DNA of 64,000 nt from IMG/VR virus record IMGVR_UViG_2693429713_000009; one strand, written 5' to 3'. How positions within the stretch are numbered: the stretch's first letter is position 1; the number at the start of each line of letters is the position of its first letter. Shown here one piece after another: positions 3,327 through 38,783 of the stretch. Position numbers and translations under genes: made by a program. The stretch comes from a virus. Taxonomy: Duplodnaviria; Heunggongvirae; Uroviricota; Caudoviricetes. The notes under the pieces were generated by a model that was not told the DNA's origin, did not search any database, and saw only the letters and a list, made by a program, of their open reading frames with translations.

Positions 3327-4355
3327 ATGAGTGAATTAATTATCTCTGGCAGTTCCGGTGGTTTTCTGCGCAACATTGGCAAAGAGTACCAGGAAGCCGC
3401 AGAAAACTTTATGCGGTTCATGAATGACCAGGGGGCTTATGCGCCGAATACTCTGCGCGACCTCCGTTTGGTGTTTCATTCCTGGGCGCGCTGGTGTCAC
3501 GCTCGCCAGCTTGCCTGGTTTCCGATCTCACCAGAAATGGCCCGCGAGTATTTTCTTCAGCTGCATGATGCCGATCTGGCTTCGACCACCATTGATAAGC
3601 ACTACGCCATGCTGAACATGCTGCTTTCGCATTGTGGCCTTCCGCCACTTTCGGATGATAAAAGTGTTTCTCTGGCTATGCGGCGCATCCGGCGCGAAGC
3701 GGCAACTGAAAAAGGCGAACGAACAGGCCAGGCTATACCGCTGCGGTGGGACGATCTGAAACTGCTCGACGTCCTGTTGTCCAGGTCAGAACGGCTGGTG
3801 GACCTGCGCAACCGGGCTTTTCTCTTTGTTGCATACAATACGCTGATGCGTATGTCGGAAATATCGCGTATTCGTGTAGGTGATCTGGACCAAACAGGTG
3901 ACACTGTCACGCTACATATTTCACACACGAAGACAATAACGACCGCCGCCGGGCTTGATAAGGTGCTTTCCCGTCGCACTACCGCTGTGCTGAATGACTG
4001 GCTGGATGTTTCCGGGCTTCGCGAACACCCTGACGCAGTGCTGTTCCCGCCGATACACCGTAGCAATAAGGCCAGGATCACGACAACGCCACTTACTGCA
4101 CCTGCAATGGAGAAAATATTCAGCGACGCCTGGGTGTTGCTGAATAAAAGAGATGCTACGCCAAACAAAGGAAGATACCGGACGTGGACCGGGCATAGTG
4201 CACGCGTCGGGGCCGCTATTGATATGGCTGAAAAGCAGGTGTCTATGGTGGAGATCATGCAGGAAGGAACCTGGAAGAAACCGGAAACACTTATGCGGTA
4301 TCTCCGCCGTGGCGGCGTGTCTGTGGGGGCTAATAGCCGCCTGATGGATTCGTAA
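3327..4355 (+). CDS. cre: Cre-like tyrosine site-specific recombinase
   Basis: 342 aa; alignable by eye with P1 Cre (…SVSLAMRRIRRE…, AYNTLMRMSEISRIRV, TGHSARVGAA, LMRYLRR with catalytic Tyr); R-K-H-R-W-Y positions conserved. Confidence 0.85.
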   Translation: MSELIISGSSGGFLRNIGKEYQEAAENFMRFMNDQGAYAPNTLRDLRLVFHSWARWCHARQLAWFPISPEMAREYFLQLHDADLASTTIDKHYAMLNMLLSHCGLPPLSDDKSVSLAMRRIRREAATEKGERTGQAIPLRWDDLKLLDVLLSRSERLVDLRNRAFLFVAYNTLMRMSEISRIRVGDLDQTGDTVTLHISHTKTITTAAGLDKVLSRRTTAVLNDWLDVSGLREHPDAVLFPPIHRSNKARITTTPLTAPAMEKIFSDAWVLLNKRDATPNKGRYRTWTGHSARVGAAIDMAEKQVSMVEIMQEGTWKKPETLMRYLRRGGVSVGANSRLMDS

Positions 4356-4356
4356 A

Positions 4357-4372
4357 TTAAATTTCTAACACA
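4357..4372 (-). promoter_or_regulatory. operator-like motif, site B (TGTGTTAGAAATTTAA on minus strand)
   Basis: Same motif family as site A; lies immediately after cre stop and upstream of the next operon. Confidence 0.35.
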
Positions 4373-4428
4373 TCTTTTTAGATTAACATCTTTGCTGTAA
4401 AGTACCCTCGCCTACTTAGGAGGGTGCT

Positions 4429-4773
4429 TTGCAGAGTCAAATCACGGAATCAAGACGCTTCAAGGTGGATGGTTACACCGTAACCTTCGCCGCTGGTGTT
4501 AAGAACAGTCATGCTGTCGTTGTGTTCGGCATCATGACCGGGCTTGAGGCCGTCCCTGTGTTTACCCTCGAAAAAAACTGGCGAAATCTGGCGGAAGCAG
4601 AAAGCTACGTCCGGAAAGTAACCATCATTGCCGCCGAAAAACTCCTGGCCCACTATCAGGAAAATTATCGCACTATGGTCGAGAAGATTAATCTCGCTTT
4701 CACTCGCCCCACTACCGGCTTTATTGCACCGGATACTAATGCAGGTCGATATCCTGCAAGGGGGCGTCGGTGA
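4429..4773 (+). CDS. hypothetical protein (TTG start)
   Basis: 114 aa ORF preceded by AGGAGG; ATGA overlap with next gene. Confidence 0.5.
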   Translation: MQSQITESRRFKVDGYTVTFAAGVKNSHAVVVFGIMTGLEAVPVFTLEKNWRNLAEAESYVRKVTIIAAEKLLAHYQENYRTMVEKINLAFTRPTTGFIAPDTNAGRYPARGRR

Positions 4774-5246
4774 AAACTTATTACCCATCTCTGAATTGTT
4801 ACCCATCTTCCTATCCAGAATTATCCGGGAAGCTGTTAGCTCTATTAGCTAAAGCACCTACGGAATGGTTTAAGCCAGTCGTTATCAATCCACACTTCCT
4901 GGATTACGGAACTGTTCGCACTCGTAACGAACTCAAAAACCTACTGGCGCATGGATTCATTCGACACCGTGCCGGGAAAGGCTATCAGTTAGCGATTGCG
5001 CCAGAAGAGGCCGTGCGGCTATTCGCATATCGTGACAGCCAGACAAAAGCTCGGGTAATAGCTCAAATACTTCATAACGGCAGCACCTATGCCCGCCAGT
5101 TTGGCGGCGACACGTCGCAGTTCTTGCGGGCGGTGCGATCGCTGGAGGAGCAAGGAGTTATTGAAAGTTCCTGTCTTCCTGTTCCTACCGTTCCACATAT
5201 CAAACGTCGGGTTTACACCTTCACGCAGAGAGCTAAAAAACAATGA
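4770..5246 (+). CDS. hypothetical protein
   Basis: 158 aa ORF translationally coupled on both sides (ATGA overlaps). Confidence 0.5.
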   Translation: MKTYYPSLNCYPSSYPELSGKLLALLAKAPTEWFKPVVINPHFLDYGTVRTRNELKNLLAHGFIRHRAGKGYQLAIAPEEAVRLFAYRDSQTKARVIAQILHNGSTYARQFGGDTSQFLRAVRSLEEQGVIESSCLPVPTVPHIKRRVYTFTQRAKKQ

Positions 5247-5737
5247 TTTACGTAAAAGTGAAACGCCTACATCCGGCAGCAAAACTTCCAGCTTATGCCA
5301 CCTCCGGATCGGCGGCGATGGATTTTGAGGCTGTTGAAATAAAACCATGCGTCGATAGCAATGGTGCAATTTCCTCAAGCTGGTGGGTGTACACCGGACT
5401 GGCTATGGAGATCCCGCCCGGCTGGTGTCTGAAACTCTATCCGCGCTCCGGATTGGGCTGCAAAAAACATACTCGCCTGGCTAACTGCGTAGGAATTATC
5501 GACTCCGATTATCGCGGTGAAATCATGGCAAAACTGATTACTGATCCAGGCGGGGAAGTCGTTCGTCTCAAGCCTGGAATGGCTGTCATGCAAGGCATTT
5601 TTGAGCGTGTTGAACAAGTCTCACTAGTCGAGGTTGAGGAACTCAACGAAACGGAACGTGGTGCTGGTGGCTTTGGTAGCACATCGGAAGACCACTTTGA
5701 AATCAAGCGCACACCGCTTCAGTACGCAAAGTTTTAA
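5243..5737 (+). CDS. dut: dUTP diphosphatase (dUTPase)
   Basis: 164 aa; hallmark dUTPase motifs (…YPRSGLG…, GIIDSDYRGE). Confidence 0.8.
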   Translation: MIYVKVKRLHPAAKLPAYATSGSAAMDFEAVEIKPCVDSNGAISSSWWVYTGLAMEIPPGWCLKLYPRSGLGCKKHTRLANCVGIIDSDYRGEIMAKLITDPGGEVVRLKPGMAVMQGIFERVEQVSLVEVEELNETERGAGGFGSTSEDHFEIKRTPLQYAKF

Positions 5738-5751
5738 GCAGAGGAAAGGCT

Positions 5752-31795: not shown

Positions 31796-32701
31796 ATGAG
31801 ATCAGTCGCTTTCAAAAATATCTTCATCTATCGTCTTTCACGCGAAGTTAGCTGGGATACTGCAGAAGTAAATGCAGCCCTTAGCAAGTTTGTGTTTACC
31901 CCATGCGGTTCTCAGGATATGGCTAAAGCTGGTTGGACCCCCGTTCTTGGCGACAACCTCACCCATGAATACCAGGGTTTTCTTCTGATACAGCATAAAC
32001 GAGAGGAAAAAATCCTACCCTCTCAAGTGCTCAAAGAAGAGTTACAGAAAAAAATCCTGACACTTGAAGAAGAGCAAGACAGAAAGCTGAAGAAGACTGA
32101 AAAAGATTCGCTGAAGGATGAAGTGCTTCACTCTCTGCTTCCTCGTGCTTTCACGAGAAAATCAGTCGCTAAAATCCTGATAGACCGAAGCAATCATCTG
32201 GTTTTTGTCGAGGCCAGCAGTGCTAAAAAAGCAGAGGATCAGCTGGCTTTGTTACGGAAATCGCTTGGCAGCTTGCCCGTTGTCCCCTTCTCTCCGAAAG
32301 ACCCATTAGAACTGACCATCACTGGCTGGATTAAAAATGGCTTCCCGAACGGTTTCCGTGCCGGTGAGGAAGCGACCTTAAAAGCATTGCTTGATGATGG
32401 CGGCGCGGTCCGCTGCAAAAAAGTGGACCTGCTATCCGACGAGATCATGAGTCATATAGAAGCTGGTAAGGTTGCAACCACAGTTGCGGTTAACTGGCAA
32501 GACCGTGCATTTTTCAGACTGAATGACGATATGAGTATCAAGGCTTTGTCGTTCAGCGACGAATTGTACGACCAGAACGACGATATTGATCGAGAGGATG
32601 TTGCGCAACGATTTGACGCTGACTTTATCCTGTTTACTGCTGAATTATCCGCGATGTTCACTTCGCTGGTGGAGGCCGTTGGTGGTGAAGCAGAACGTTA
32701 A
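31796..32701 (+). CDS. rdgC: RdgC-like recombination-associated protein (P1 hrdC-like)
   Basis: 301 aa; alignable along its length with E. coli RdgC (…[11 protein letters not shown]…KKTEKDSL(K/R)[12 protein letters not shown]…[17 protein letters not shown]…). Confidence 0.85.
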
Positions 32702-32714
32702 CAATAGACCTCTG

Positions 32715-33365
32715 ATGGTGAGTCTTTGTGATTTCACGGGGAAAATGGTCGCCCCCTGGCTGGAGCATGGTATAGATGCTGTTATCGTCGATCCACAACA
32801 CGCAGAGACCAGAGATGAGCTGATGCAATCAGGCGCAGTTCTGACACGTATCAGTGCGATTATCGATAGTGATGAAGTTTATGCTTTTCTCCGAAATAAT
32901 TTACAACGTATTGTGTTTTTAGCTGGTTTTCCGCCGTGCACGGACCTTGCTGTTTCCGGTGCGCGCTGGTTTGCGCATAAGGCTGACAAAGATCCGTTTT
33001 TCCAGTTCAAAGCGATGCAGGTCGTCTGGCAGTGTTACGATATTGCAAAGATGATTGGTTGCCCGTACATGATTGAAAACCCGGTCAGCCAAATATCGAC
33101 ATTCTGGCGTAAACCTGATCACATCTTCCATCCTTACCACTTCACTGCATATTGCAAGGAAGACAATTACACCAAAAAAACATGCCTCTGGAGCGGGCAA
33201 GGCTTTGTCATGCCTGATGCCCTAATGGACGAATCATTAGGCAAGCCAGATAACAGAATCCATACCGCGCCACCTGGACCTGAAAGGGCTAATTTTCGAA
33301 GTGCTACTCCGCATGGATTCGCAAAGGCAGTTTTCGAAGCGAATAAGGGGGTGCTCTATGAGTAA
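32715..33365 (+). CDS. short C5-cytosine methyltransferase-like protein (catalytic motifs only)
   Basis: 216 aa; motif IV-like GFPPCTDLAVSG and motif VI-like MIENPV; too short for a canonical C5-MTase. Confidence 0.45.
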   Translation: MVSLCDFTGKMVAPWLEHGIDAVIVDPQHAETRDELMQSGAVLTRISAIIDSDEVYAFLRNNLQRIVFLAGFPPCTDLAVSGARWFAHKADKDPFFQFKAMQVVWQCYDIAKMIGCPYMIENPVSQISTFWRKPDHIFHPYHFTAYCKEDNYTKKTCLWSGQGFVMPDALMDESLGKPDNRIHTAPPGPERANFRSATPHGFAKAVFEANKGVLYE

Positions 33366-34263
33366 ATCTATAGCAAGCATAGCCATAGAAAAACAGGATA
33401 CGATGGCTGAAATTAGCTATATGCGCACCATTCGGACTCAGGATGAATATGAGCGCCCGATCTTCAAATGGGTAGGCGGTAAATTCTCAGAGTTGCCTAC
33501 AGTGCTTGAGCATCTACCACACGGCAAGCGGTTAATAGAACCATTCGTTGGTGGCGGTTCCGTATTTACAAATGCAGGATTTCGCCACAACCTGCTTAAT
33601 GATATTAACGGTGACCTGATTAACTTCTATCAGACATTGCAGCGAGAAGGACATTCGCTCGTCACGCTGTCATATAGTTTTTTCCAAAATTACAACAACG
33701 CTGACGCTTACCTAGAAGTGCGTGAGGCATTTAACAGAGGAAAGTATGACCAGCTACATCATGCTGCCGCCTTTTTGTACCTTAATCGGCACTGTTTTAA
33801 TGGCGTAACGCGGTACAACCAAAATGGCGAGTTCAACGTGGGGTATGGCAAATACAAAGCGCCCTACTTCCCACATGCAGAGATGGAGGCATTTTTGGCT
33901 GATGACGTACTCAAAAACACGTCCTTTGTATCAGGTGACTTTGCTGGCGTCATCGAGGCGGCTGGTGAAGGCGATGTGATTTTTTGCGATCCGCCGTATG
34001 AACCGCTGCCGGATACAGAAGGGTTTACCAGTTATTCAGGAAATAGCTTCCGTTTCGACGAACAGAAACGGCTGGTATCTCTATTGGTGGAAGCCCACCA
34101 GCGCGGCGCTAAGGTAGTGATAACAAATAGTGGTGCGCCAAACATCCGTGAACTATATGAAGGAAACGGGTTTAAAGTACATCATATGGCAGCCAGACGG
34201 TCGGTGTCCTGCAAGGCGTCAACACGTGTAGTTGCTAACGATATAATTGCAATAATGAAGTAA
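33358..34263 (+). CDS. Dam-like N6-adenine DNA methyltransferase
   Basis: 301 aa from ATG 33358; FKWVGGKF…EPFVGGGSVF…DPPY motifs; 8-nt overlap with upstream ORF in a different frame. Confidence 0.7.
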   Translation: MSKSIASIAIEKQDTMAEISYMRTIRTQDEYERPIFKWVGGKFSELPTVLEHLPHGKRLIEPFVGGGSVFTNAGFRHNLLNDINGDLINFYQTLQREGHSLVTLSYSFFQNYNNADAYLEVREAFNRGKYDQLHHAAAFLYLNRHCFNGVTRYNQNGEFNVGYGKYKAPYFPHAEMEAFLADDVLKNTSFVSGDFAGVIEAAGEGDVIFCDPPYEPLPDTEGFTSYSGNSFRFDEQKRLVSLLVEAHQRGAKVVITNSGAPNIRELYEGNGFKVHHMAARRSVSCKASTRVVANDIIAIMK

Positions 34264-34296
34264 AAAACGCCGCAGTAGCGGCGTTTACTTTTTTAT
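34264..34296. terminator. bidirectional intrinsic terminator between convergent MTase gene and glnS
   Basis: AACGCCGC-agta-GCGGCGTT flanked by A-run and T-run. Confidence 0.6.
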
Positions 34297-34311
34297 GTGG
34301 CGAAATACCTA

Positions 34312-35973
34312 TTAACCTAACTTCGCCCAGGTATCACGCAGCCCAACGGTGCGGTTAAATACCGGTTTTTCCGCCGTAGAATGGCGGCTGTCGAGGCAGA
34401 AATAACCTTCACGCTCAAACTGGAATGCTTTACCCGCTACCGCTTCTTTCAGCGACGGTTCAGCAAAACCCTGTTTGATCACCAGCGATTCCGGGTTAAT
34501 CACCGACAGGAAATCATCCGCAGCACCTGGGTTCGGCACGCTGAACAGACGATCGTACAGGCGGATTTCAACCGGCAGCGCATGTGCCGCGCTCACCCAG
34601 TGAATAACGCCTTTCACTTTACGACCATCTGCCGGATCTTTGCTTAAGGTGTCGGCGTCATAAGTACAGAAGATGGTGGTGATATTGCCTTCGGCATCTT
34701 TCTCCACGCGTTCAGCCTTAATGACGTAAGCATTACGCAGACGCACTTCTTTACCCAGCACCAGACGTTTGTACTGCTTGTTAGCTTCTTCGCGGAAATC
34801 GGCGCGGTCGATCCAAATCTCACCGCTAAACGGCACCTGACGGCTACCCATTTCCGGTTTGTTTGGATGGTTCGGCATGGTGACCATTTCGCCTTCGCCC
34901 TGGTAGTTTTCGATAACCAGTTTCACCGGATCGATAACCGCCATTGCGCGCGGCGCATTTTCGTTGAGATCTTCACGGATGCAGGATTCCAGCGACGCCA
35001 TCTCAATGGTGTTGTCCTGCTTGGTCACGCCGATGCGTTTGCAGAACTCACGAATAGAAGCCGCAGTGTAACCACGACGACGCAGACCGGAAATGGTCGG
35101 CATACGCGGGTCATCCCAGCCTTCAACGTGCTTGTCGGTCACCAGCAGGTTCAGCTTACGCTTGGACATCACAGTGTATTCCAGATTCAGGCGCGAGAAT
35201 TCGTACTGGCGCGGGTGAACAGGAATGGTGATGTTGTCCAGTACCCAGTCATACAGACGACGGTTGTCCTGGAACTCAAGCGTACACAGAGAGTGCGTAA
35301 TACCTTCCAGCGCATCGCTGATGCAGTGGGTGAAGTCGTACATCGGGTAGATGCACCACTTATTGCCAGTCTGGTGGTGTTCAGCAAACTTAATGCGGTA
35401 CAGCACCGGGTCGCGCATCACGATAAACGGCGAAACCATGTCGATTTTCGCACGCAGGCAGGCTTTACCTTCTTCAAAACCACCGGCACGCATTTTTTCG
35501 AACAGCGCCAGGTTCTCTTCAACGCTGCGGTCGCGGTACGGGCTGTTTTTACCCGGCTGCGTCAGGGTGCCGCGGTATTCGCGGATCTGTTCCGGCGTCA
35601 GTTCGTCAACATACGCCAGGCCTTTGTTGATCAGTTCAACAGCATAGGCATGGAGTTTGTCAAAATAATCGGAGGAGTAACGGATGTTGCCAGACCAGTG
35701 AAAACCTAACCATTCAACGTCGTTTTTAATCGACTCGACGTACTCGATATCTTCTTTTACCGGGTTAGTGTCGTCGAAACGCAGGTTGCACTGGCCTTTA
35801 TAGTCCTGGGCGATCCCGAAGTTCAGGCAGATAGATTTCGCATGACCAATATGCAGATAGCCATTCGGTTCCGGCGGGAAACGGGTATGTACTGTGGTGT
35901 GCTTACCACTGGCCAGATCTTCATTGATGATCTGACGAATAAAGTTAGTCGGGCGGGCTTCTGCCTCACTCAT
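34312..35973 (-). CDS. glnS: glutaminyl-tRNA synthetase, host (enterobacterial) type
   Basis: 553 aa; class I HIGH motif ([11 protein letters not shown]), VMSKRK; N-terminus [16 protein letters not shown]… recognised as E. coli/Salmonella-type GlnS. Confidence 0.9.
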
Positions 35974-36163
35974 TGTGGATTCCTCAAAGCGTAAACAACG
36001 TATAACAGCGTATGATCTTATAAGCCGAATAGGCTGACAACCACTAGTTGATTAGAAATTGCTTTCTATCGTTATTTCAATAATGAGCTTTTTCATGAAG
36101 CCCACTTTTGCGCATAAGTAAATTAATGACAAATGGTACACAATTGGAACCAAAAAGGATGTA

Positions 36164-36200
36164 AAGGTGCACCAAATTAGTGGTGTATTGGTGCACCTTT
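36164..36200. repeat. perfect 13-bp inverted repeat AAAGGTGCACCAA…TTGGTGCACCTTT
   Basis: Downstream of the par operon, near the right edge of the glnS insertion; word AAAAGGATGTAAA precedes it and recurs at 40134. Confidence 0.5.
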
Positions 36201-36241
36201 GGTTCAAGACTTTTTAAGTTCTAAAACCAACCTGAAAGACT

Positions 36242-36529
36242 TTATTTTGCTTCCTCAGACTCCGCTAACATGAGGATAGCATGGCGGATCATATTCAATT
36301 TGCTGCGATTATGCTTTTTACTTAACGCATCAAGTACTTGGTACTCGTATTCATTGAAACCAACACGAATAGATTTAAAATCACGTGGAGCGTCCTTATC
36401 GAGCACTTTGTTGTCTTCTGGTTGCTCACCCGGCACCAAATCAGCCTTACTGGCAAAATCCTCAATTCGGCGTTCAAGATCGGGGTCTTTTACTTCGGGG
36501 GCTTTTACCGATTTACGAGGCTTAATCAC
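36242..36529 (-). CDS. ParG-like ribbon-helix-helix centromere-binding protein
   Basis: 95 aa; immediately downstream of and overlapping the parA-type ATPase gene; basic N-terminus and RHH-like C-terminus. Confidence 0.5.
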   Translation of the reverse strand: MIKPRKSVKAPEVKDPDLERRIEDFASKADLVPGEQPEDNKVLDKDAPRDFKSIRVGFNEYEYQVLDALSKKHNRSKLNMIRHAILMLAESEEAK

Positions 36530-37163
36530 TTAATAACTCCTTAACCAACATCTGGATTTCACCTTTAGCTTTCCCGTTGTCCATCTCAACAACGCCCTTC
36601 CCTTCAGCCATGCAATCGCGGTAAACCTTACGATCACGAATGATGGTTTTCAGCAACTTCAGTTGCGGATATTCAGCCAGGTACTCTTTGGCCTCATTGG
36701 TTTCATTCACAACCGGATTGGATGGGGCCATTGTTAAGACTGCGAACGCCTTAATGCTAGGATTAGGCATCAGGTCCAAAGCCTCTTCAAACACTTCAAC
36801 AAAGTGTGCCAGCGTGTCTAAATCTGGTTGAGATGGTCTGAATGGGACCAACACAATATCTGCAGCGGTTATGCCTGTACGCATCTCTTTGCTATCGCGC
36901 CCGGCTGTATCAACAACTACAAATTCATAACGCTTATCCAGATCGAGAAGTGTTTCTCGAATATTACCAAACTTCTGGACACAATGAATTACAGGAGAAA
37001 CCTCTGCCGTGTTACGGTCAGCTGCCCAGCGGGCAGCTGTTCCTTGCTTGTCTGCATCTAGTAACACTACATCCTTATTTGCGCGGGCAAGCTCCGCACA
37101 GATGTTTACGCTTGTGGTTGATTTTCCACAGCCACCTTTTTGGCTGACTACCAATATAATCAT
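36522..37163 (-). CDS. parA: ParA/ParF-type partition ATPase (type Ib)
   Basis: 213 aa from ATG 37163; deviant Walker A KGGCGKST; GAGGAA SD. Confidence 0.75.
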   Translation of the reverse strand: MIILVVSQKGGCGKSTTSVNICAELARANKDVVLLDADKQGTAARWAADRNTAEVSPVIHCVQKFGNIRETLLDLDKRYEFVVVDTAGRDSKEMRTGITAADIVLVPFRPSQPDLDTLAHFVEVFEEALDLMPNPSIKAFAVLTMAPSNPVVNETNEAKEYLAEYPQLKLLKTIIRDRKVYRDCMAEGKGVVEMDNGKAKGEIQMLVKELLSD

Positions 37164-37450
37164 ATCCGTTCCTCGGTGTGATTTTGGTATCAAAACGGTT
37201 CCAGATAAGAGCCTTTTTGATGCGGGACAGGCTCTATAATGGAGTCATTAATGTTTGGCAAAGTATAACATCAATCAGACCAAATACACCTTATATTGCA
37301 TCCTATTTAACACGAAATCAGCCCAAAATTGGAACCAGATACAAAATAACTCCATAGCAGCACCTAAGTGGTACCAAATTAACACCAATTAGACACCATT
37401 AAGGCATAAAAAAGGCTGCAATTTGCAGCCTTAAACCAGCACATCTTCTG

Positions 37451-37795
37451 TCAATCAGGTAGAGAGTCAGCTAGATTGCGCGCCGACGCGCTTTTGGCAA
37501 CAAATTGCTCCTTCACTGGCTCAATGGAGGCAGGGCGCTCCTCAACCGCAGCTGGTAGTTCCAGGAAGGATGCCAGCATTTTTCGGATCAGCTCCGGGTT
37601 ATTGTCTTCGGTCAGCAGGGAAGCCAGTAATCCTGGAAGCCTGCTATCGACTTCTCCCAGCGCAAGCCCTGCCAACAATGCAGTTCTTGCCATATCGCTA
37701 TGTTTTTTTATCTTCTCGCTCGCCGCCTTTTCATTGGCATAAGCCTCTGGGCGAAGATAAATCATCACTTTCTTACGTTCCTGAGACATGGACAT
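37451..37795 (-). CDS. parR: ParR-like centromere-binding protein (type II partition)
   Basis: 114 aa; RTALLAGLAL block resembles R1 ParR; directly downstream of parM. Confidence 0.55.
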   Translation of the reverse strand: MSMSQERKKVMIYLRPEAYANEKAASEKIKKHSDMARTALLAGLALGEVDSRLPGLLASLLTEDNNPELIRKMLASFLELPAAVEERPASIEPVKEQFVAKSASARNLADSLPD

Positions 37796-37801
37796 ACCTC
37801 G

Positions 37802-38758
37802 TTAACCGATTGCTTTCAGGCCATGAACAAGAGCAAGTTGCGGGTCATCCGCCACGAAGAAACGGTCATCACGAATATTAACTTGCTCGCGAATTGCATC
37901 TGCCACCAGCGGTGCGCCACCACCGATCACCATGACATGCGTATATCCTTTAAAGTCGCCAATCACATCAAGAACGCGGGTACGCAGACGGTCAATGCTT
38001 GCGGCAATGGCCTTTTTCACATCACCAATCGCTGATGGGTCATTGATATTGTCGTTCAGATAATCTTCATCGTGGCGGTTAATAATGAGCTGATCAACAT
38101 TGTAATTTGACGTTTCGGTATTGGCCCTTGCAAGTGCTTGCCTTACTTCCCTGGTGACCAGTGATACACCAAGATTCGAATCGCCAAAAACACGGGAAAC
38201 TGCCGTCATTTGTCCAGCGACCATTGAAACATCAAGGGTAGTTCCACCCAAATCGACGATAAGAACAGAGTGGGCAGGGTTCAGATTGTCGCACAGGCTA
38301 ATTCCCGCCGGGATAGACTCCGGGCGTACCGTAACTTTCTTAATAGTGAATACATTGCCTTTATTCAGCGTGACGGGGCGCATAAGACTGGCTTTCTTGC
38401 GCTCGATGTTATCGAGATTGTATTGCGCGTCGTCGTCGTAAAACTCTGCCAGAGGCAGCGTGACCACAATTTCTACTTCCTGCGGCTCAATACCGCTTGT
38501 CAGCAGGGCATGGTGAACAGCCAGGACGTTAAGCGGGCTGTATTGCCATTCCACATTATTCGTCGGCAGAACATCTGGCGATATCAAGTCGTATGAATAC
38601 TTTTCGTCGTCAATGACATAGTTAAACGGCTTGCCCGCACCAAATGTTGCTGACCATCCGCGCTTAAAGCTGTTAGGGCTGATGTGAGTGCGAGTTTCCC
38701 CGTCGTGCTCCCACAGCATTTTGATATTGGTTGAACCATCATCGATAAAAATGCGCAT
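37802..38758 (-). CDS. parM: ParM/StbA actin-like partition ATPase (type II)
   Basis: 318 aa from ATG 38758; MRIFIDDGSTNIK…, AVHHALLTSG, DLGGTTLD, HVMVIGGGA alignable with R1 ParM. Confidence 0.8.
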   Translation of the reverse strand: MRIFIDDGSTNIKMLWEHDGETRTHISPNSFKRGWSATFGAGKPFNYVIDDEKYSYDLISPDVLPTNNVEWQYSPLNVLAVHHALLTSGIEPQEVEIVVTLPLAEFYDDDAQYNLDNIERKKASLMRPVTLNKGNVFTIKKVTVRPESIPAGISLCDNLNPAHSVLIVDLGGTTLDVSMVAGQMTAVSRVFGDSNLGVSLVTREVRQALARANTETSNYNVDQLIINRHDEDYLNDNINDPSAIGDVKKAIAASIDRLRTRVLDVIGDFKGYTHVMVIGGGAPLVADAIREQVNIRDDRFFVADDPQLALVHGLKAIG

Positions 38759-38783
38759 CTTCTTGCTCCACTTCTGAGACACA

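Follow-up and report, generated by a model that had tools for sequence, protein, structure and literature searches.

The window that we analysed, a 64,000-nucleotide stretch of the Caudoviricetes virus record IMGVR_UViG_2693429713_000009, carries a glnS gene for glutaminyl-tRNA synthetase (GlnRS) as a cargo cassette in a phage-plasmid of the phage D6 type. The cassette sits between a gene for a Dam-family adenine methyltransferase and an operon for a ParA-type partition ATPase, and comprises the following features.

34264 to 36134, minus strand: glnS cargo cassette in its entirety, roughly 1.87 kb, delimited by alignment of the occupied site with three empty sites (right edge uncertain by about 15 bp)
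34264 to 34296, both strands: bidirectional intrinsic terminator common to the convergent glnS and dam genes, with its stem at 34265-34286 (9 bp, 4-nt loop) and T runs on both strands
34312 to 35973, minus strand: glnS coding sequence of 553 codons and a stop codon, with intact HIGH and MSK motifs and the C-terminus ...WAKLG*
35974 to 36011, minus strand: glnS leader with the ribosome-binding site GAGGAA, near-identical to the chromosomal leader
36012 to 36040, minus strand: native glnS sigma-70 promoter found by consensus scan, with -35 TTGTCA (36040-36035), a 17-nt spacer and -10 GATCAT (36017-36012)
36041 to 36134, minus strand: upstream part of the cassette, outer edge approximate, an apparent diverged counterpart of chromosomal nagE-glnS intergenic DNA

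The open reading frame (ORF) at 34312-35973 had been predicted to be a 553-residue protein of the GlnS type with the class I aminoacyl-tRNA synthetase motifs, and this description was borne out in every respect. Its signatures HIGH (residues 41-44) and VMSKRK (VMSKR being residues 267-271) are the same as in Escherichia coli GlnRS, so that the catalytic motifs are unaltered, and it scored 1065 bits with the NCBIfam equivalog model TIGR00440, whose curated cut-off is 425.8 bits, covering model positions 1-524 of 524. Alignment with the solved structures of E. coli GlnRS (PDB 1o0b, 1gtr and others) runs end to end with 546 of the 553 residues identical (98.7%). The seven differences from 1o0b are all conservative (D17N, V97I, Q106K, I112V, A180V, D510E and V552L), residues 181-509 are unchanged, and both the acceptor-binding and the anticodon-binding domains are complete as judged by alignment to the solved enzyme. 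At the C-terminus the protein reads ...WAKLG* where the chromosomal genes encode ...WAKVGE*, making it one residue shorter. The model match, the motifs and the domains together place the predicted protein in the bacterial GlnRS family, and we read the ORF as encoding a full-length, catalytically intact enzyme.

This closeness to the host enzyme bears directly on one possible role of the gene, namely that a second synthetase protects or backs up the cell against a competitor toxin, an inhibitor or an abortive-infection system that disables host GlnRS or the charging of tRNA-Gln; the original prediction had suggested protection from a GlnRS-targeting toxin. There is a general precedent for this idea in second copies of aminoacyl-tRNA synthetases that confer resistance. 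However, an inhibitor of the host enzyme would hit a protein that is 98.7% identical to it and carries only conservative changes, and we know of no GlnRS-targeting toxin in the Enterobacteriaceae. We therefore regard protection as very unlikely.

The DNA surrounding the coding sequence belongs with the gene. By alignment the promoter and leader are homologous to those of chromosomal glnS in E. coli, Citrobacter, Klebsiella and Enterobacter, and relative to E. coli K-12 strong homology extends from the -35 hexamer (window position 36040) to the last two or three codons (about 34316-34322). Farther upstream, the segment at 36041-36134 retains approximately 55-60% identity to the chromosomal nagE-glnS intergenic DNA; it is present in every glnS-carrying plasmid of the D6 family, that of E. 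fergusonii included, and is missing in relatives without glnS. At the 3′ end the cassette closes with ...AKLG* followed by the terminator AAACGCCGC-TACT-GCGGCGTTT, an arrangement identical in the window, in D6 and in eight further plasmids, while the E. fergusonii relative has the same upstream junction and terminator but a protein ending in ...AKVEG*. From the K-12 alignment alone this terminator was at first read as foreign to glnS. That reading was overturned by three observations: the stem AAACGCCGC/GCGGCGTTT is the native glnS terminator stem directly 3′ of the gene in Citrobacter, Enterobacter and Klebsiella chromosomes; the same stem is found in the E. coli chromosome, farther downstream of glnS behind an insert of repetitive extragenic palindromic (REP) sequence; and the empty-site relatives have a different hairpin (AAAAGCCCC...GGGGCTTTT) after dam. 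Since the stem is identical to the native terminator of other Enterobacteriaceae, the terminator probably came with the cassette. The hairpin at 34264-34296 and the proposal that the gene brought its own upstream region and terminator were thus both upheld, and the cassette is, as far as its signals can be read, a complete transcription unit from promoter to terminator.

The promoter has a further property that may matter for expression. Its -10 hexamer, GATCAT, contains a Dam methylation site, and this GATC is kept in E. coli, Citrobacter, Klebsiella and Enterobacter. The E. coli glnS promoter is repressed approximately two-fold by Dam methylation (Plumbridge and Soll, 1987; later confirmed by RNA-seq). 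We also observed that the cargo promoter with this site (36012-36017) is accompanied by the element's own Dam-like methylase gene (33301-34263), which adjoins the cassette in convergent orientation. That the GATC has been retained next to such a gene raises the possibility that the methylation state modulates expression of the cassette. The P1-type C1 operator consensus had no match anywhere in the window, even when three mismatches were allowed.

Comparison with related elements shows where the cassette ends and that it is accessory. Three related E. coli phage-plasmids lack glnS (NZ_CP173545.1, NZ_LR890273.1 and NZ_CP028585.2), and at their empty sites (L100 4863-4999, L101 4863-4999 and L103 3720-3865 in our locus numbering) the gap from dam to orf61 is 135-145 bp. 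The partition region that adjoins glnS was found on 101 plasmids and no chromosome among 5,426 E. coli genomes, and approximately 75 of the 101 E. coli plasmid records with this region carry glnS; carriage by about three quarters of the plasmids makes the gene accessory, not core. Another candidate that was considered, integration of the element into the chromosome via its glnS homology, is not seen in the same survey: the adjoining partition region was on none of the chromosomes. The composition of the cassette also deviates: its GC content is 51-55% against 42-49% in the flanking DNA, and third codon positions have a GC content of 0.61 in glnS, whereas the median for the other ORFs is 0.46. 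With its own promoter and terminator, its absence in syntenic relatives and its deviating composition, the cassette has the sequence attributes of a moron.

The backbone features on either side of the cassette are listed below.

33301 to 34263, plus strand: Dam-family adenine methyltransferase gene, backbone, convergent with glnS
36163 to 36200, no strand assigned: perfect 13-bp inverted repeat AAAGGTGCACCAA / TTGGTGCACCTTT, backbone, downstream of the parA-orf61 operon
36242 to 37193, minus strand: ParA-type partition ATPase gene (36522-37193) and a downstream gene of 95 amino acids (36242-36529), the orf60/orf61 pair of D6, backbone

The predicted placement between a Dam-like methyltransferase gene and partition loci was therefore correct, with the ParA-type gene and its small neighbor followed by StbB/ParM on the far side. 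The inverted repeat had been proposed to start at 36164 and to border the cargo. It is indeed a perfect 13-bp palindrome (arms at 36163-36175 and 36188-36200, 13 nt each, 100% complementary, with 12 nt between them), but it starts at 36163 and is not the border: because the backbone alignment with the empty-site relatives resumes at about 36135, the palindrome is backbone that lies some 30 bp beyond the cassette. It may be the terminator of the parA-orf61 operon or a partition site. Around it (36130-36230) we noted several TGGT(G/A)CAC(C)-like and TTGGTTC/GAACCAA motifs, with similar motifs in the empty-site relatives. Two unlike partition systems stand side by side in the window (36522-38782), a ParA-type ATPase with a small partner and an actin-type StbB/ParM system. 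On the other flank, the Dam-family gene that adjoins glnS is annotated as one gene of about 2.3 kb in some relatives (L012 2188-2539, L014 2188-2539). D6 and the window (32586-34263) have two shorter genes at that place, for a putative cytosine methylase and an adenine methylase, and further relatives have the adenine methylase gene annotated as a pseudogene truncated at the N-terminus.

Which element carries the cassette, and how widely is it spread? Along its entire length the 4.5-kb stretch round glnS shares 98.3% identity with Escherichia phage D6 (MF356679 / NC_050154), whose record annotates orf62 as "glutaminyl-tRNA synthetase, similar to E. coli GlnS", and the window glnS fits the definition of the D6-type cassette, lying between the dam-like gene and the parA-orf61 operon with junction and 3′ end as in D6. 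We accordingly assign the window to a D6-type phage-plasmid; D6, a plasmid prophage, is related to P1 yet distinct from it, so that an initial framing of the element as P1-like does not hold. In PLSDB 139 plasmids match the locus, 97 of them over at least 80% of its length, mostly from E. coli, Salmonella and Shigella and with identities of up to 99.9%. We also noticed among PLSDB "plasmid" records several of 0.28-4 Mb (for instance L006, NZ_OP378648.1) that carry glnS in chromosomal synteny, nagE-glnS-chiP in the case of a Klebsiella record; these are apparently pieces of chromosomes, or entire chromosomes, that were entered as plasmids. Among phages a GlnRS gene is a rarity, found in 13 of 50,697 records, and those outside D6 are distant homologs in very large or uncultured phages.

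This breadth of distribution settles whether the locus is an artefact of assembly in which the chromosomal glnS locus was misjoined to phage DNA. The D6 genome and approximately 100 complete circular plasmids, all independent records, show identical junctions. Non-chromosomal DNA flanks the gene: chromosomal homology ends some 70-85 bp ahead of the ATG on one side and at the final codons on the other. As identical junctions in so many independent complete records exclude misassembly, we give this explanation practically no weight.

The presence of the gene was already known, since it is annotated in D6 and was discussed in print in 2019. The gene orf62 (glnS) of D6 and of D6-like plasmid prophages is attributed to Gilcrease and Casjens (2018). 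The 2019 paper on the D6-like prophages of Salmonella Typhimurium ST213 called glnS a "moron", stated that it was present in all D6-like genomes, and suggested by analogy with cysS of the plasmid pBT1 that it might raise host fitness or serve plasmid maintenance (PMC6799933). The empty-site relatives qualify the statement that all such genomes carry it. What we add are refinements of a known feature: the limits of the cassette, the relatives with empty sites, the case for a single capture, and that for recurrent gene conversion between plasmid and chromosome.

The evidence for a single capture lies in the edges of the cassette. Every carrier that we examined, namely D6, eight further E. coli and Salmonella plasmids, pTB423 and a divergent E. 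fergusonii plasmid, has the identical upstream junction and the same terminator, and one common upstream junction implies that glnS was captured once. The alignments therefore point to a single old capture by an ancestral element, between its dam gene and its parA operon, and the simplest interpretation of the sequences is that the donor was the chromosome of an Escherichia-level lineage.

The interior of the gene suggests a more eventful history. The original prediction had described the gene as essentially host-identical, and this proved too strong: against 5,426 complete E. coli chromosomes the nucleotide identity of the window allele is at most 97.2%, and against K-12 it is 96.1-96.2%. There are 20 sites private to the D6 family, of which 17 fall within nucleotides 87-363 and three at the extreme 3′ end. 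Across the 5′ block, 16-19 sites per 150 nt separate the alleles from each reference tested, whether of E. coli, E. albertii or another source; codons 30-121 of the window glnS represent a lineage that is approximately 10% diverged. The matches that a scan for donors listed came from E. albertii, a single divergent Escherichia and numerous other genera, and none of them fits this private block; no Salmonella, E. fergusonii or E. marmotae was among the matches listed. Outside the block, single plasmid alleles are identical or nearly so to particular chromosomal haplotypes. For instance, of 23 informative sites beyond nucleotide 1000, the window agrees with one E. coli haplotype at 19, whereas D6 agrees with the second haplotype at 21 (Fisher p = 6.6e-7). 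Similarly, the allele of NZ_CP067430.1 (L012, a plasmid of E. coli O22:H8) has nine of 11 consecutive variants private to E. albertii at nucleotides 1311-1437, and D6 has none of them (p = 2e-4), which suggests either a former residence of this plasmid lineage in E. albertii or recombination with that species. The pTB423 allele is approximately 6% diverged from all references across its 3′ two-thirds and is perhaps closest to the allele originally captured. The simplest interpretation of these patterns is that the plasmid alleles are mosaics that have been repeatedly overwritten in patches by gene conversion from the glnS of host chromosomes. The edges of the cassette would escape such conversion because they lack flanking homology.

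Has the plasmid gene been maintained by selection, or only by this overwriting? The ratio of non-synonymous to synonymous substitution rates (dN/dS) is 0.02-0.08 both among plasmid alleles and between plasmid and chromosomal alleles, relative to 0.00-0.05 among chromosomal alleles, and by this measure the plasmid glnS appears to be under strong purifying selection that is perhaps slightly relaxed. A neutral passenger, picked up by chance, hitch-hiking on the element and kept intact only through overwriting by host alleles, would be in keeping with the extent of conversion from chromosomal alleles and with the viability of relatives without glnS. Nevertheless, the gene is intact in all carriers examined, across E. 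coli, Salmonella and E. fergusonii, and the unconverted private 5′ block (nucleotides 87-363) has only conservative changes. Moreover, the copies borne by Salmonella are intact even though Salmonella glnS should, we presume, be too diverged for ready conversion. Two records would at face value speak for decay: in NZ_CP031917.1 (L007) and CP042632.1 (L008) glnS is unannotated and has scattered single-base indels, but the A/T homopolymer runs of the terminator are affected too, and the indels, of a kind typical of long-read errors, are probably errors of the long-read consensus and not the marks of true pseudogenes. Taken together, we consider it improbable that glnS is merely a passenger.

An entirely different reason for retention would be addiction to an essential gene, in which the plasmid copy takes over the supply of GlnRS, the chromosomal glnS is silenced or lost, and cured cells die or grow poorly. 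This idea has a precedent in Salmonella Typhimurium D23580, where cysS of pBT1 is an essential gene and its chromosomal counterpart is strongly down-regulated; transposon screens in Salmonella class glnS as essential, and the same proposal was put forward for D6-like glnS (PMC6799933). The original prediction had likewise offered plasmid retention after loss of the chromosomal copy. E. coli glnS occupies 5,428 chromosomal places in 5,425 genomes, in addition to 81 plasmid places, and the carrier strain PEC399 has an intact chromosomal glnS of 554 amino acids beside its plasmid copy. Loss or decay of chromosomal glnS in carriers is not what these 5,425 E. coli genomes and PEC399 show. Host chromosomes keep their own glnS, and the plasmid copy is no replacement for it, so that retention after chromosomal loss is not the general state. 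A full-length chromosomal gene in essentially all genomes, plasmid carriers included, speaks against addiction, as do three further considerations: the element already has two toxin-antitoxin and two partition systems, relatives without glnS are maintained, and the frequent conversion from chromosomal alleles needs intact chromosomal copies. On the published analogy with pBT1, addiction is conceivable but unlikely, although we rate it above the passenger hypothesis.

The reading that we prefer, and which we hold to be probable though well short of certain, is that glnS is a moron of D6-type phage-plasmids: an intact GlnRS gene that was captured once, is expressed from its own promoter and has been overwritten by gene conversion, with an extra dose of GlnRS as its likeliest benefit. 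Under this reading, host RNA polymerase would transcribe the cassette constitutively from its own Dam-sensitive sigma-70 promoter, apart from the phage circuits. Every lysogen would carry a second copy of glnS, doubling its gene dosage, and lytic replication would raise the copy number, and probably the output of GlnRS, along with the phage DNA. In charging host tRNA-Gln the enzyme would act no differently from that of the host, and the benefit would lie in extra or buffered capacity for charging tRNA-Gln, favoring the lysogen, the phage yield, or both.

A number of points weigh against an extra dose of GlnRS as the benefit. Over-production of GlnRS in E. coli was reportedly found by Swanson et al. 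in 1988 to cause mischarging, so that a high dose could be costly. Approximately one quarter of the E. coli plasmids with the partition region do without glnS, yet persist, and any benefit of the gene must consequently be conditional. Part of the low dN/dS could have been imported with converted chromosomal tracts rather than arising from selection on the plasmid copy. The predicted proteins of the element contain 3.99% glutamine and, not being glutamine-rich, pose no special demand for tRNA-Gln. Finally, the authors of the 2019 paper called the study of the role of glnS "work in progress" (PMC6799933), and we did not find later work in the literature on the function of glnS in D6-type phage-plasmids.

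A special glutamine demand of the element was itself considered as a candidate explanation and was ruled out by this glutamine content and by the window, in which no tRNA genes were found. The same figures bear on the narrower proposal that glnS serves lytic growth only, with amplification of the genome lifting GlnRS so that charging of tRNA-Gln will not limit the synthesis of virion proteins, in parallel with the tRNA genes of D6-like phages. D6-like genomes do carry four tRNA genes (PMC6799933) and a few very large phages have GlnRS genes; in addition, as the promoter is Dam-repressed in E. coli, fresh under-methylated copies could, we reason, be more active. However, apart from the unremarkable glutamine content, no tRNA-Gln is reported among the tRNAs of the family (PMC6799933) and none is present in the window, the promoter is constitutive and host-type without recognizable phage control, and defective p75 prophage variants that have lost 15 kb of morphogenesis genes retain glnS (PMC6799933). 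A role confined to the lytic phase is a possibility, but a doubtful one.

In the preferred account, in which glnS adds to the dose of GlnRS, the benefit might also be specific to certain conditions, for example if, under nitrogen limitation, the extra GlnRS kept tRNA-Gln charged despite scarce glutamine and prevented the stringent response, with the cassette additionally acting as a bridge for recombination between plasmid and chromosome. We put this forward tentatively, and give it about the same modest credence as lytic support. The mosaic alleles, the E. albertii-type tract included, show by their sequence patterns that plasmid and chromosome have exchanged DNA in at least one direction. 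If the bridge is real, then 1.7 kb of permanent homology would allow D6-type phage-plasmids to move alleles of an essential housekeeping gene back and forth among strains and species of Escherichia.

What a mobile element gains from a one-gene rise in the dosage of an aminoacyl-tRNA synthetase is a question that dates from 2018-2019. The existence of natural relatives with and without glnS, together with a cultivable phage D6, makes the role of the gene tractable, and the mosaic alleles bear more generally on recombination between phage-plasmids and their hosts.

Among known systems, the nearest to the window are D6 orf62 and its counterparts in D6-like prophages such as pYU39_89, with the same gene, position, junctions, promoter, terminator and ...AKLG* end; relative to D6, the window allele has the private substitutions D17N and A180V, and its 3′ third matches another E. 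coli chromosomal haplotype. Chromosomal glnS of E. coli (b0680) encodes the same enzyme behind the same promoter architecture, with GATC in the -10 hexamer, and the same leader. It differs in that the window gene is 96.1-97.2% identical to it in nucleotides, ends in different codons, has no REP between stop and terminator, and lacks the neighbors nagE and chiP. A complete plasmid glnS with native-type promoter and terminator, as in the window, is also present on the 133.6-kb Enterobacter ludwigii plasmid NZ_CP116349.1 (L005; glnS at 4074-5741). However, this is an Enterobacter-type allele only 86% identical to that of the window, on a backbone that is not D6-like and beside two site-specific integrase genes, dinQ and a very large gene of the SNF2 family, features that mark it as an independent capture. 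The closest mechanistic analog, in our judgment, would be cysS of pBT1 in Salmonella Typhimurium D23580 (Canals et al., 2019), likewise an essential class I aminoacyl-tRNA synthetase gene duplicated on a large low-copy plasmid while the chromosomal gene is kept. In the case of pBT1, experiments demonstrated that the plasmid gene takes over the function, whereas D6-type glnS, known here from sequence, is likened to it by analogy; and the D6 carrier differs from pBT1 in being also a phage, the glnS alleles of which keep recombining with the chromosomal gene.

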